In this document: positions 31,695 through 34,812 of the stretch, in pieces | How the letters are laid out: each line of letters begins with the position of its first letter | Numbering within the stretch: the stretch's first letter is position 1 | Assembly (NCBI GenBank): GCA_963762145.1 | Contig: CAVXJS010000011.1 | Span: forward strand, 480,001 to 544,000 | DNA length: 64,000 bases | Direction of reading: 5' to 3' | DNA from: an uncultured Candidatus Rokubacteria bacterium | Lineage (GTDB): Bacteria > Methylomirabilota > Methylomirabilia > Rokubacteriales > CSP1-6 | The notes under the pieces: model-generated | The model's database searches: none | The model's input: only the letters and a program-made list of their open reading frames with translations | Told to the model about the DNA's origin: nothing | Position numbers and translations under genes: made by a program

Positions 31695-32224
31695 AGTGCC
31701 CGTTCTGCGGCCACACCGAGGACCGCGTGGTGGACTCGCGCGTCGGCCGCGACGGGGAGTTCATCCGGCGGCGGCGCGCGTGCCTGAAGTGCAACCGCCG
31801 CTACACGACCTACGAGTACATCGAGGACGTCCTGCCCCACGTGGTCAAGCGCGACGGCCGCCGCGAGCCCTTCGACCGCCAGAAGCTGCGCGGCTCGATC
31901 CTCAAGTCCTGCGAGAAGCGCTCGGTGGGCGTCCAGGCGGTGGACGACGTGGTGGCGGACATCGAGGCCAAGCTGCACGACCGGGCCGAGAAGGAGATCA
32001 CGAGCCTCGAGCTGGGCGAGATCGTGATGGAGCATCTCCAGAAGCTGGACCAGGTGGCCTACGTGCGGTTCGCCTCGGTGTACCGCCAGTTCAAGGACAT
32101 CTCCCAGTTCATGGACGAGGTGAAGCACCTGATCAAGGACGACAAGCCGGCGAAGGTCGCTCCCAGCAAGCCGAAGGCCTCGCGCCAAGCGGTAGACCAC
32201 CCCTCACCCTGCCCTCTCCCCTGA
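31691..32224 (+). CDS. nrdR: Transcriptional repressor NrdR
   Basis: KCPFC...IRRRRAC..C..RYTTYE zinc ribbon, ATP-cone, [10 protein letters not shown]. Confidence 0.97.
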
Positions 32225-32235
32225 GGGGAGAGGGG
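32200..32235. repeat. REP-like palindromic element (CCCTCACCC...CCCTCTCCC-loop-GGGAGAGGG)
   Basis: Inverted repeat; a related copy in opposite orientation lies at 38710-38744. Confidence 0.75.
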
Positions 32236-33124
32236 GATGAGGAGGGACGGCTCTTGTAGTTGTCAGCGCCACGCCCGCGATCACGCCGCAGGCGCCGATC
32301 CAGTGGTACCAGCGGATCGGCTCGCCCACCATCAGCCAGGACAGCCCCAGCACCAGGAACGGGATCAGGTTCGTGAACACCGCGGCGCGGCCCGGTCCGA
32401 CCGTGCGCACCGCCTGGTAGAACGCGATGTGCGCGGGCGTCCCCAGCAGGGAGCTGTAGAGCACGACCACCACCGCCACCCACGAGGCCCCGGCGAAGCT
32501 CTGCCAGGGCCGTTCCAGGAGGGCCAGCGGGAGCAGCAGGCCCGCCGCCACCACGTGGGCGCCCGCCAGCATCTGCAGCGGCGAGAAGGTGGACCGGTTG
32601 GCACGGGTGTAGAGCGTGTAGGTCACCCAGAGCATCTGGGAGATCAGGATGATCACGTCGCCCCGGTTCGCCGACAGCGTCCGGAGCACATCGAGTGACC
32701 CCCGTGCGATCGTGAGCACCACCGCCACCATCGTGAGCGCGATCCCGGTCAGGTTCAGGGCGGACAGGCGCTCGCGCAGCATCGCCGAAGCCGCGAGCGC
32801 CACCACCACCGGCGCCGCCGCCCCGAGGATCCCCGCGTTGGCGGGGGTGGTGAACATCATGCCGGTGTACCAGAGTGTGGAGTTGCCCACGAATCCGGTG
32901 ACCCCGAGCACGATCACCGCGGTCAGGTCGCGACGGGCGAGCGGCGGCAGCGGGCCCTCGAGGATGCGGGACGCGAGCATGAGCAGCGGCGCGGCGATGA
33001 GCGCGCGCAGGGCCGCGAGCGTGAGCGGTCCGAGCTCGGAGAGGCCGAGCTTGGCGAGCGGGAAGTTACCGGCCCAGATGAGGGCCACGACGAACAGGAG
33101 GAGGTAGGCGTCGCGGTGAGTCAC
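32204..33124 (-). CDS. DMT/EamA family transporter
   Basis: 'ALIWAGNF', 'LRERLS', '[14 protein letters not shown]', 'GEPI'; two EamA repeats. Confidence 0.93.
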
Positions 33125-33135
33125 GGGAGATGGAA

Positions 33136-33166
33136 CGGCCCTGCCGGGATGGGGCCGACAGGGCCG
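33136..33166 (-). terminator. GC-rich hairpin downstream of the poly-Lys peptide gene (terminator/attenuator candidate; no strong U tract)
   Basis: 12-bp stem CGGCCCUGUCGG/CCGGCAGGGCCG with a 7-nt loop; fully paired (one G-U) only on the minus strand. Confidence 0.5.
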
Positions 33167-33184
33167 AGCGCCACGAGGGGCGCC

Positions 33185-33226
33185 TTACTTCTTCTTTTTC
33201 TTCTTCGCGGCCTTCTTCTTCGCCAT
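33185..33226 (-). CDS. 13-aa lysine-rich peptide MAKKKAAKKKKKK; absent from ORF track
   Basis: ATG...TAA by hand translation; [14 protein letters not shown]-like tract 4 nt upstream; dedicated promoter. Confidence 0.7.
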   Translation of the reverse strand: MAKKKAAKKKKKK

Positions 33227-33276
33227 CGTGTCACCCCCCTCCCGATCCCCGCGCGTCCGGCGGTCGATCTGTCCGG

Positions 33277-33305
33277 ACTCTAGGGGAGGGCCCAAAACGT
33301 GTCAA
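33277..33305 (-). promoter_or_regulatory. Near-consensus sigma70 promoter for the poly-Lys peptide
   Basis: TTGACA (33305-33300), 17 bp, TAGAGT (33282-33277). Confidence 0.75.
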
Positions 33306-33369
33306 GAGGAAAATACCCGATAGAGGGGTCGTAACGCACTGCAGCCCCCACATCTTGGGGGCGGGACGG

Positions 33370-34059
33370 CTAGGTCTTCTCGAGCTTCTCGTGGGCGGAG
33401 GACGGCTTGCGATGCTCGCGGCGCTTCACGTACTCCTGGTTGAGCGGCACGCCCTTCTTGCAGAGCGGGCAGGTGTCGACGCTGTAGGTGGGGAAGTCGC
33501 GGCTCACGAGGCTGAAGATCTCCTTGCCGTCGATCACCGCCTTCTTGGTGCGTCGCCACAGCGCGCCGATGCCGATCACCTGGCCGCCCAGCTCCTCCAC
33601 GAGCTGCGAGAGCAGCCGCACGGTGGTGCCCGAGCTCACCAGGTCTTCCACGATGAGCACCTTCGTCCCGGTGCGGATGAACCGCTGGAACTCGACGGGC
33701 AGACTCACGCGGCGCTTGCCCGCGCTGACGCCCTTGGTGCCGTAGGCCAGCGTCGGCCGGGAGGGATGCGCGCGGGCCACGCAGTGCGACAGGATCAGGG
33801 CGCCCGGCCCGGTGGAGAGCACGACGTCGATGGGCCACTGCGCGAAGTGCTTGGCGATGACCGCCCCGAGGCCCTCGGTGAAGGAGGCCTCGGTGGTGAC
33901 CAGGGTCTTCTCGATGTACTCGCTGGTGTGGTGGCCCGACGGCAGCAGCACGTGGTCGTTGGCGTGGTAGGCGCCGGTGCGCTTGAGGATCTCGAGATGG
34001 ATCTTCTCGCGTACCTCGGCGTCCATCTGGCTGTCGGATTGTCGCGGCGGCGGGGCCAT
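33370..34059 (-). CDS. Type I phosphoribosyltransferase, orotate PRTase (PyrE)-like
   Basis: 'HVLLPSGHHTSEY', PRPP motif VLIVEDLVSSGTT, C-terminal CPLCKKG; TTGACA-17-CATCCT upstream. Confidence 0.85.
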   Translation of the reverse strand: MAPPPRQSDSQMDAEVREKIHLEILKRTGAYHANDHVLLPSGHHTSEYIEKTLVTTEASFTEGLGAVIAKHFAQWPIDVVLSTGPGALILSHCVARAHPSRPTLAYGTKGVSAGKRRVSLPVEFQRFIRTGTKVLIVEDLVSSGTTVRLLSQLVEELGGQVIGIGALWRRTKKAVIDGKEIFSLVSRDFPTYSVDTCPLCKKGVPLNQEYVKRREHRKPSSAHEKLEKT

Positions 34060-34128
34060 CAGTCGCTCAAGGATGACGGCCGGGCCGCGGCGTGTCAACT
34101 CGAAAGTGGGCGTGCTAGACTGCCGCGC

Positions 34129-34812
34129 ATGAGGCTCCTGGCGCTCGAAACCGCCACGCTCGCGGGCGGGGCCGCGCTGATCGAGGAGGGGCGCCTCGTC
34201 GGCGAGAGCCGGCTCAACATCGCCCTCACGCACTCCGAGCGGCTCATGGCCGTCGTGGACCGCCTGCTCCAGGACTGCGGATGGGACGTGGCGAGCCTGG
34301 ACGCCCTCGCGGTGTCCATCGGCCCGGGCTCGTTCACCGGCCTCCGGGTCGGCGTGGCCACCGCCAAGGGGCTGGCCCTGGCGCTGGAGATCCCGGTGGC
34401 GCCGGTACCCACGCTCGACGCGCTCGCCGCCACGCTGCCCTTCGCGGACGCGGCGGTGTGCCCGCTGCTCGCGGCGCGGCGCGACGAGGTCTACGGCGCG
34501 CTCTACCGATGGAGCGGCTCGGCGATGGAGCGGCAGTGGGAGTACCTGGCGCTGCCGCCCGAGGCGGTGGCCGCCCGCCTCGAGGCGCCCGTGATCGTGC
34601 TGGGCGACGGGGTCGCGGCGTGTCGGCCGTTTCTCGCCCGGCTCGGTCCCGGGGTCCGCGAGGCCGATCCCGTGCATTCGCTGCCGTCGCCGGCGGCGGT
34701 GGGCGCGCTGGGCCACGCGATCCTCGTCGCGGGCGGCGGCATCCCGGCGGAGCAGCTGGCGCCGCTCTACCTGCGCCCCTCCGAGGCCGAGCTGAGGGCG
34801 CGTCATGCGTGA
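34129..34812 (+). CDS. tsaB: tRNA threonylcarbamoyladenosine biosynthesis protein TsaB
   Basis: LLALETAT, HSERLM, GPGSFTGLRVG and PLYLR motifs. Confidence 0.96.
   Translation: MRLLALETATLAGGAALIEEGRLVGESRLNIALTHSERLMAVVDRLLQDCGWDVASLDALAVSIGPGSFTGLRVGVATAKGLALALEIPVAPVPTLDALAATLPFADAAVCPLLAARRDEVYGALYRWSGSAMERQWEYLALPPEAVAARLEAPVIVLGDGVAACRPFLARLGPGVREADPVHSLPSPAAVGALGHAILVAGGGIPAEQLAPLYLRPSEAELRARHA

Follow-up and report, generated by a model that had tools for sequence, protein, structure and literature searches.

A 13-codon open reading frame (ORF), rich in lysine codons, lies on the minus strand of the window, the stretch of 64,000 nucleotides from contig CAVXJS010000011.1 of an uncultured Candidatus Rokubacteria bacterium that was analyzed here. 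Comparison with related genomes indicates that this frame is a conserved miniature gene with its own promoter, ribosome binding site and terminator hairpins, and that it does not serve mainly to control the EamA/DMT transporter gene that follows it. We put at about one half the probability of an oligolysine micro-protein that stands alone, is strongly expressed and binds a polyanion, a target that we infer. The frame had been noticed earlier from the letters of the window, and that original prediction offered two models: a lysine-codon leader peptide for the transporter gene, or a free micro-protein that gene callers would miss. The leader model cannot account for the conservation described below, given the copies at operon ends, the six genera in which the transporter gene is missing and the lack of covariation for an antiterminator. 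The second model stood as to a stand-alone gene missed by gene callers, one that is conserved, multi-copy, independent of EamA and built for strong expression; the binding target that it named is conjecture.

Conservation and Distribution of the Micro-Gene

Each of the other 20 genomes in the genus gave a match to a 301-nt query that spans the element. The ORF is present in each of the 20 same-genus loci that were read (the window and 19 relatives); 19 encode MAKKKAAKKKKKK, and one has a single Lys codon deleted. The Ala2 codon varies synonymously among GCG, GCA and GCC, the stop is TAA in 16 loci and TAG in 4, and the spacer between the Shine–Dalgarno sequence (SD) and the ATG is 4–7 nt long and free in both sequence and length, with SD, start, frame and stop all retained. 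These changes are of the kind expected of a translated gene. Beyond the genus, the SD and ORF part of the query alone matched, at 80–95% identity and often twice at a distance of ~110 nt. Conservation in relatives of the ORF, the SD and (in the type-B units described below) the promoter, one of the points on which the original prediction had staked itself, is present.

A strict sequence pattern is found in 104 of 251 genomes of the phylum, all of them in two families of one order (85/158 in f1 and 18/21 in f4). It has no matches in 68 genomes of other orders, and the reversed pattern has none. With a relaxed pattern and genomes at least 90% complete, the matches rise to 74/83 in f1 and 14/14 in f4 (88/97 of the order, for micro-ORFs of the form SD + MAKKKA[A/T]KKKK(K)(K)), and elsewhere are confined to 1/13 in f7, 2/10 in f8 (G074 and G076, of which G076 was inspected) and 1/2 in f10, with none in f6, f11, f12 and f13; a third pattern is also negative in f13 (0/20). 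The relaxed pattern in reverse gives 2 matches, compared with more than 150 forward matches with each pattern. These tallies, and that of bS21 below, include genomes flagged as unpublished (G074, G116, G232 and G233), which are not the sole basis of any conclusion.

Five of the nine pattern-negative f1 genomes were checked by synteny alone (G111, G132, G142 and G176 fall outside the check), and all five carry K-rich micro-ORFs beside the L28 gene, rpmB. Their SDs are strong and their hairpin is the same one; MKKKATKKKKKK is one such micro-ORF, and MAKKKKAAAKKPAKKKK and MAKKKKAAAKKKKKR form a pair. The peptides anchored in this way are loose in sequence, 12–17 aa with P, G, T or R. Since all five were positive, the micro-gene family is probably universal in the order Rokubacteriales, with an exact sequence looser than the patterns suggest. 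Across the order there are 2–3 copies per genome, with peptides of 11–13 aa. In three other orders we find tandem pairs, such as MAKKKKAGKKKR with MAKKKKAGKKKK, located after genes for ArsR-like HTH and HEPN proteins and without rpmB or recG.

A scan of 185,579 species with the SD, the start and the first nine codons returned 107 stretches. By record title (a hand count), 77 are Rokubacteria/Methylomirabilota, 10 are Candidatus Eisenbacteria, 8 are "uncultured bacterium" and 12 carry other labels. The labels of metagenome-assembled genomes (MAGs) are unreliable. Eight of the 12 (L084, L120, L126, L138, L140, L150, L151 and L152) are typical Rokubacterial loci in MAGs labelled Acidoferrum, Hyphomicrobiaceae, Verrucomicrobiia, Binatia and Nitrosocosmicus (an archaeon), and these are probably binning errors. 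Two more, L158 and L164, labelled Udaeobacter and Verrucomicrobiia, hold the Eisenbacteria-type unit described below. There are also frames of 36 and 47 aa in records labelled Lentisphaerae and Planctomycetota; these have K-runs with A/T spacers only, and each is followed by a T-run terminator.

Indications of Translation

The case for translation is made by sequence comparison. A scan blind to frame found 205 unique Lys-codon tracts. A stop codon follows at once in 170 of them (TAA 97, TAG 73); the remaining 35 are inside longer forms or end 1–4 codons ahead of a stop. Every tract with an in-frame ATG, GTG or TTG no more than 3 codons upstream has an SD within 18 nt (186/186). The start codons swap among ATG, GTG and TTG, and one is always at SD distance. 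Among 197 unique units the stops are TAA in 111, TAG in 86 and TGA in none, while the 1995 long ORFs of the genome (70.1% G+C) end in TGA in 1181 cases (59%), TAG in 683 and TAA in 131. TGA is both the commonest stop and the leakiest, and its avoidance would be difficult to account for if the stop were not read.

Lysine is AAG 1604 times and AAA 61 times in the family (96.3%) and 23,074 and 831 times in the genome (96.5%), so there is no special choice of codon, and the wobble positions of the Ala and Thr codons vary (for Ala, GCG 363, GCC 160, GCT 34, GCA 19). Apart from Met1, the peptides comprise 2355 residues: K 1665, A 576, T 64, G 26, R 18, V 4 and P 2. The K:R ratio is 1665:18, compared with 2.5% K and 9.5% R in the proteins of the genome of the window. 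Within the 64-kb window the K3-xx-K4 codon pattern occurs once, and it occurs in 0 of 100 shuffles.

The signals around the frame are strong. The promoter matches the consensus at 10 of 12 positions and is the sole sigma-70-like match at 32,500–34,000 (one found vs. 0.1 expected from shuffles). The SD, GGAGGTGA or GGGGGTGA, is kept in all units. In the window the leader ends in the SD-bearing GGGAGGGGGGTGA at 33,243–33,231; this leader had been predicted and is present, except that six G residues follow the A where five had been given. Taken together, these comparisons show that the micro-gene has the build of a translated, strongly expressed gene. A comparison with public reads by shared words gave values of 0.43–1.00 in 14 soil and rhizosphere DNA runs and 0.10–0.19 in six metatranscriptome runs, the latter being small shares that do not count as evidence of expression or of habitat.

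Two Types of Locus

The copies in Rokubacteriales fall into two types. Type A is a tandem pair, sometimes a triple, of frames of the form SD + MAKKKAAKKKK(K), beginning ~25–30 nt past the stop of a gene of ~349 aa, which itself comes after a Zincin_1 gene and relA/spoT. The ~349-aa protein has weak HTH_IclR and AbiEi_2 matches at the Pfam cut-off and none in NCBIfam. The idea that it is a fusion of the HTH and HEPN genes of the other orders was dropped, as BLASTP gave it no support (E = 0.35 and 11). The type-A locus in the genome of the window is on contig C15 and has a 23-aa frame, MPKRKKAVKKGGKKKATKKGKRK, then a 13-aa frame, MAKKKKAAKKKKK. Its 3′ end consists of a hairpin, a canonical terminator (11-bp stem and T-run), the convergent L28 gene (TIGR00009, 80 bits vs. 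a cut-off of 48.3 bits) and recG. With a terminator and a convergent gene next, the type-A copies have no gene left for which to act as leaders.

Type-B units, of which the window copy is one, are solitary, and each has a conserved sigma-70 promoter to itself. Defined by the promoter TTGACA-N16–18-TAnnnT, the type includes 55 unique units. The −10 hexamer is TAGCAT in 24/55 and TAGAGT in 19/55, and the spacer is 17 nt in 43 and 18 nt in 12. In the type-B units compared, a (g)tatttt or gatttt stretch appears at the site equivalent to the T-rich stretch at 33,308–33,316 of the window, which is possibly an UP-like element.

Structure after the stop codon is a feature of all types. Compared with shuffles, the 75 nt past the stop have a mean z of −3.0 in 54 type-B units, −1.6 in 126 type-A units and −4.0 in 15 of the Eisenbacteria type. 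The first hairpin past the stop (hairpin 1) is also found in type-B units of other genera, including those that lack EamA. For the second (hairpin 2), 8 of 10 predicted pairs are invariant in 21 f1 type-B sequences, and one varies as U·G in 15, U-A in 5 and C-G in 1. The stem at the equivalent site in f4 differs in sequence, with compensatory changes (CGGAGG../..CCTCCG vs. CGAAGG../..CCTTCG). In f4 and several f1 genera, a divergent gene for a B12-binding radical SAM protein (with DUF4070 in f4) is found beside type-B units (L042:237–2429, L055:2791–4605).

Units of the Eisenbacteria Type

The Eisenbacteria-type peptide is 21–22 aa long, MAKKKAAKKK[G/A]TKKKAAKKKK, and resembles two Rokubacterial units fused. 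Its gene follows those for a PAS histidine kinase and a sigma-54-dependent response regulator (Sigma54_activat, 221 bits), and uvrA is downstream. A −24/−12 motif, TGGCAC-N5-CTGCT, precedes the micro-gene, once in an 8-kb locus vs. 0.01 expected, and its TGGCA is invariant across 12 aligned sequences. The motif is upstream of 10 of the 14 unique units of this type, and these are 10 of the 13 matches in 2.19 Mb strand-bases of loci. Sigma-54 promoters are found upstream of none of the Rokubacterial copies (0/127 type-A and 0/51 type-B units). The motif is followed by a structured leader of ~135 nt (L063:3356–3506 and 11 other aligned loci), in which 5 predicted pairs have two-sided changes, and which has no relevant match in Rfam. 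The dedicated, signal-controlled promoter of a second lineage provides good evidence for regarding the peptide gene as an independent unit.

Relationship to the Transporter Gene

An EamA ortholog on the same strand follows 34 of the 55 unique type-B units. Against the protein of the window, these orthologs score 218–243 bits in f4 and 294–348 bits in the other f1 genera. Among the loci taken from individual genomes, linkage is found in 19/20 of genus g1 (the remaining one is at a contig end), in g48 and in 8/8 of two f4 genera. The other 21 units have no EamA gene within 400 nt, including L008, which stops at a contig end. In genera g2, g4, g20, g26, g32 and g49 the ortholog is absent beside the micro-ORF, and the next gene is a convergent nrdR or something unrelated. 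These loci retain the promoter, the SD, the frame, both hairpins and the ..CCATCTC.. that follows hairpin 2. The linkage to EamA that had been proposed as a check is real in two families and absent in six genera.

A search with the EamA protein of the window in five of the genomes without linkage found no match at E ≤ 1e-20 in two. In G023, G021 and G201 the best full-length matches are elsewhere in the genome, at 37–38% identity and 126–140 bits. G201 (L053/L172, C6 ~1277926–1280321) also has a broken EamA remnant (residues 219–301, with one TAG) ~2 kb downstream of the micro-gene, with a 583-aa gene in between, and appears to catch the loss of EamA in progress. The unit is thus intact at loci without EamA, and the gene order glyA-nrdR-(EamA)-micro-gene appears to be the ancestral one, from which EamA has dropped out several times while the micro-gene has always been retained.

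Features of the Locus in the Window

The features are listed in Table 1. Four had been described in the original prediction and hold up: the promoter in the minus-strand sequence and the promoter scan, the 13-aa frame with its nine Lys codons (8 AAG and 1 AAA), the 12-bp hairpin in the fold, and the EamA start without an SD, the gene product matching Pfam EamA at E = 7e-43. One pair of the hairpin is G·U, so that only on the minus strand is it complete. Two further features had been missed, namely hairpin 1 and a frame shared by the micro-ORF stop and the EamA GTG.

Table 1. Coordinates of the features of the micro-gene locus, all on the minus strand of the window.
Feature	Position	Description
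T-rich stretch	33,308–33,316	GTATTTTCC; immediately 5′ of the −35 hexamer; from the sequence
Sigma-70-type promoter	33,277–33,305	TTGACA-17-TAGAGT; −35 at 33,305–33,300, −10 at 33,282–33,277
5′ untranslated leader (predicted)	33,227–33,270	Small hairpin inside; start at ~33,270 assumed from the −10
Micro-ORF	33,185–33,226	ATG at 33,226, TAA at 33,187–33,185; 13 aa, MAKKKAAKKKKKK
Hairpin 1	33,167–33,184	6 bp, GGCGCC..GGCGCU; abuts the stop codon; from minimum free energy (MFE) and centroid folds
Hairpin 2	33,136–33,166	12 bp with one G·U, loop CCCCAUC; terminator-like 3′ stem without a clear U-tract
Tail	33,125–33,135	UUCCAUCUCCC; joins hairpin 2 to the EamA GTG
EamA/DMT transporter gene	32,204–33,124	306 aa; GTG at 33,124, 11 nt past hairpin 2

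In the shared frame, 20 sense codons intervene between the micro-ORF stop and the GTG (33,125–33,187, minus strand). Read-through of the stop would put a poly-Lys N-terminal extension on EamA. The arrangement is kept in most of the genus and is not kept in family f4 or in G227, and it is probably due to chance.

Folding of the whole 163-nt region is no better than that of shuffles (z = −0.31). In the MFE structure the SD pairs over a long range with the tail that follows hairpin 2, a pairing that was set aside for want of covariation support. An origin of the hairpins in a repeat element was also rejected, each of them being present once in the genome. Rfam 15 has no relevant match to 32,000–34,500 of the window at E up to 10, and no family reaches its gathering score in five representative loci.

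Two observations fall outside the window, in G000. A 19-codon frame, MAKGRSMKKEKKKPKKEKK, stands behind a strong SD, GGGAAGGGAGGTGA, on contig C21 (997250–997309, minus strand), and may be a second kind of Lys-rich micro-gene. Contig C9 (876612–876749) has a run of ~70 A/T bases, mostly A, within a genome of 70% GC, which looks like an assembly or chimera artefact.

A Proposed Free Oligolysine Peptide and Its Alternatives

The reading that we favor would work as follows. Positions 33,305–33,130 of the minus strand would be an independent small transcription unit under a strong sigma-70 promoter, in which a near-perfect SD in a short leader would drive translation of the 13-codon gene, and the two hairpins would terminate or stabilize an mRNA of ~140 nt. 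The product would be an oligolysine peptide, probably AKKKAAKKKKKK once Met is removed, carrying a charge of ~+9. As a free polycation it would act on a cellular polyanion, which may be DNA in the nucleoid, rRNA in the ribosome or polyphosphate. EamA would be a passenger gene, expressed at most via read-through of the hairpins. The neighbors recG, uvrA and rpmB are compatible with DNA or the ribosome as the target and are proof of neither. A wider proposal, which we advance tentatively and with less confidence, is that at least two uncultured soil and groundwater lineages, the Rokubacteriales and the Eisenbacteria-labelled MAGs, encode free oligolysine as a "peptide polyamine", a tunable polycation for nucleoid, ribosome or polyphosphate that ribosomes would make from multi-copy genes of 11–13 codons, each under a strong or signal-controlled promoter.

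Several points weigh against a free peptide. Arg is nearly absent, though at 70% GC a role depending only on charge should allow AAG to change to AGG. The deficit is a hint that Lys itself, or its codon, matters, and it keeps a reading based on decoding alive. Peptides as short as this are usually degraded quickly. The adjacency to EamA is conserved in two families and could reflect a functional tie. As to the counts, detection of the ORFs required at least 50% Lys, which makes the composition figures partly circular; repeats of AAG slip in 3-nt steps, so that in-frame variation in length is no proof of coding; and related genomes are not independent, so that the counts overstate independence. 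A role as a Thx-like substitute for bS21 was rejected, since Thx stands in where bS21 is absent, and in a survey of bS21 alone that protein (PF01165) was over the cut-off in 78/78 phylum genomes at least 95% complete. Most phylum genomes have 2–3 separate bS21 matches over the cut-off, which suggests that paralogs are common. Finally, low complexity and a length of 13 aa defeat homology tools, also for a comparison with known basic proteins, so the null searches that follow are not in themselves evidence of novelty. Four relatives of 21–23 aa have no match in Pfam or NCBIfam at E up to 10, and forms of 23 and 21 aa have none in the PDB at the same limit. The 47-aa form has none at E ≤ 1e-3 in a collection of 5.8 billion proteins, among the 8000 candidates that shared words with it. 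In the literature, we found no description of encoded oligolysine micro-genes, and the string KKKAAKKK is in no paper of the library searched.

The best of the alternatives, doubtful as we consider it, is that the act of translation is the function. Reading 8–10 consecutive Lys codons would report lysyl-tRNA supply or ribosome capacity, and the outcome would be stalling, an altered fate of the mRNA, or a signal to the stringent response or to ribosome rescue, the released peptide being irrelevant. The near-exclusive use of Lys where Arg is favored by mutation would fit such a sensor, as would the loose peptides of the synteny-anchored cases, the relA/spoT gene that precedes the type-A locus in Rokubacteriales, and the very strong SDs, which would ensure steady loading of ribosomes. 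However, the type-A loci offer no target in cis, the choice of Lys codon is ordinary, and the adjacency to relA is absent in the other orders and in Eisenbacteria. The fused forms of 21–47 aa also suggest that the repeat is kept at the level of the protein.

It is improbable that the frame is incidental to an element acting as RNA or DNA, either a purine-rich small regulatory RNA with a super-strong SD or a bidirectional terminator, in which the complement of the AAG run would give the opposite strand a U-rich tail that halts convergent transcripts. On the plus strand at 33,168–33,183, hairpin 1 with the T-rich complement of the Lys run (tail CTTACTTCTT) does score as an intrinsic terminator, and antisense or convergent transcripts could end there. 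A convergent nrdR or rpmB lies opposite many copies, the hairpin sequences are conserved beyond the need of a plain terminator, and AAG repeats would vary by 3 nt whether coding or not. What argues for coding instead is the constant placement of the start at SD distance and of the SD before all 186 tracts with a nearby start, the exclusive use of TAA and TAG in 197 units, and the free variation at Ala and Thr wobble positions. In addition, a dedicated strong promoter drives transcription into the element, the f4 EamA copies, the Eisenbacteria uvrA copies and the first of the tandem copies are not next to convergent genes, and no Rfam family matches.

An attenuator of EamA is unlikely, and we give it a low probability. 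Here, the position of the ribosome on the Lys run would set whether the hairpins form and hence the transcription or translation of EamA. The architecture of the window fits this, having a promoter, a short Lys-rich ORF, hairpins and a transporter gene close by that lacks an SD, and EamA comes after 34 of the 55 unique type-B units, in two families. Against it, the micro-ORF, promoter and both hairpins persist in the six genera without EamA there; four of the five such genomes searched lack a close EamA match, and the fifth has the broken remnant. There are paralogous copies at operon ends. The alternative pairing that an antiterminator would need has a covariation term of −0.63, the stem of hairpin 2 alone being well supported, and hairpin 2 has no U-tract in the genus of the window. 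It also makes little sense for lysine starvation to induce an exporter, and the EamA product is below every NCBIfam equivalog cut-off (the best is YddG, 62.8 bits vs. a cut-off of 300 bits).

Least probable of all is a precursor or substrate, an oligolysine that enzymes modify or consume (a RiPP-like product or an acyl acceptor) or a nitrogen-rich store. In its favor, tandem multi-copy tiny genes are typical of precursor peptides, a strict need for Lys would suit epsilon-amino chemistry, and regulation linked to nitrogen would be consistent with the sigma-54 control of the Eisenbacteria relatives. Against it, the radical SAM gene that might suggest such a role does not adjoin the copy in the window, nor any type-A, other-order or Eisenbacteria locus examined, and there is neither a leader/core organization nor a consistently linked transporter or maturation gene.

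If the wider proposal of a peptide polyamine is true, bacteria have a class of core gene that has gone unrecognized, with members that rank among the shortest stand-alone coding genes known to be conserved. If the peptide is made, every gene caller discards a core family of a whole order that has 2–3 copies per genome and a conservation roughly on a par with that of a ribosomal protein gene, and the lower size limit of conserved stand-alone bacterial genes would move to ~11 codons. The peptide would be an easily synthesized molecule for studies of nucleoid, ribosome and polyphosphate binding, and the control by sigma-54 and a two-component system in the Eisenbacteria relatives suggests that it can be the output of a signaling pathway. 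Two features, the restriction to Lys at 70% GC and the total avoidance of TGA, raise specific, testable questions about translation. The family also supplies a search rule for GC-rich lineages (an SD, M-A-K3-x1–3-K3–6, TAA or TAG, and a hairpin) and a caution that not every short homo-codon ORF upstream of a gene is an attenuator.

Comparison with Known Systems

Lysine repeats and histone-H1-like tails with a similarly restricted composition are found in DNA-binding proteins of GC-rich bacteria. Lys/Ala/Thr repeats are described as DNA-binding elements typical of GC-rich bacteria, in the C-terminal domain of TopA and in HupS/HupB, where DNA binding depends on the repeats; the unit given there is K1–2(A/T/N)3–5, occurring at least 3–5 times in the tail of a folded protein (PMC5714199). 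AlgP is described as H1-like and linked to polyphosphate granules (PMC9239181). The micro-peptide shares with these the restriction to K, A and T and the maintenance of Lys against a high-GC background. It differs in that the known repeats are appended to folded proteins of hundreds of residues (TopA of Streptomyces and Mycobacterium, HupS/HupB, AlgP), while the micro-peptide has K3–6 runs with spacers of 1–2 residues and would be free-standing at 11–13 aa, with its own promoter and SD, in multiple copies, and with DNA as one possible target.

The tiny basic proteins of the ribosome (bL37, bS22, bL38, bTHX and eL41) are likewise very short, very basic, restricted to lineages and missed in annotation. 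Of these, bS22 and bL38, unannotated proteins of this sort, were found only by cryo-electron microscopy and mass spectrometry (PMC10618245). One copy of the micro-gene adjoins rpmB, but that neighbor is convergent and not co-transcribed, and the relatives of 21–23 aa have no family or PDB match. Judging from the lengths and sequences of bL37, eL41 and Thx, the known proteins are at least 24 aa, mix Arg and Lys with specific residues, and are single-copy.

The leaders of amino acid attenuators (trp, his and thr) resemble the locus of the window in having a short ORF with codons for a single amino acid, hairpins, and a gene downstream on the same strand. Attenuation by a Lys-codon leader has reportedly been described for the lysine biosynthesis cluster of Thermus. 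Unlike these leaders, the micro-ORF is kept even where it has no gene downstream, alternative structures lack support, its peptide recurs at unrelated loci, and in the window the gene downstream is an exporter gene and not one for Lys biosynthesis or uptake.

A precedent in size is mccA of microcin C, a gene of seven codons, which shows that a bacterial gene of about ten codons can be stand-alone, selected and coding. The product of mccA is a precursor processed by dedicated, linked enzymes, and the gene is borne on plasmids or islands. The oligolysine genes, in contrast, belong to the chromosomal core of a whole order, and no enzyme gene accompanies them constantly.

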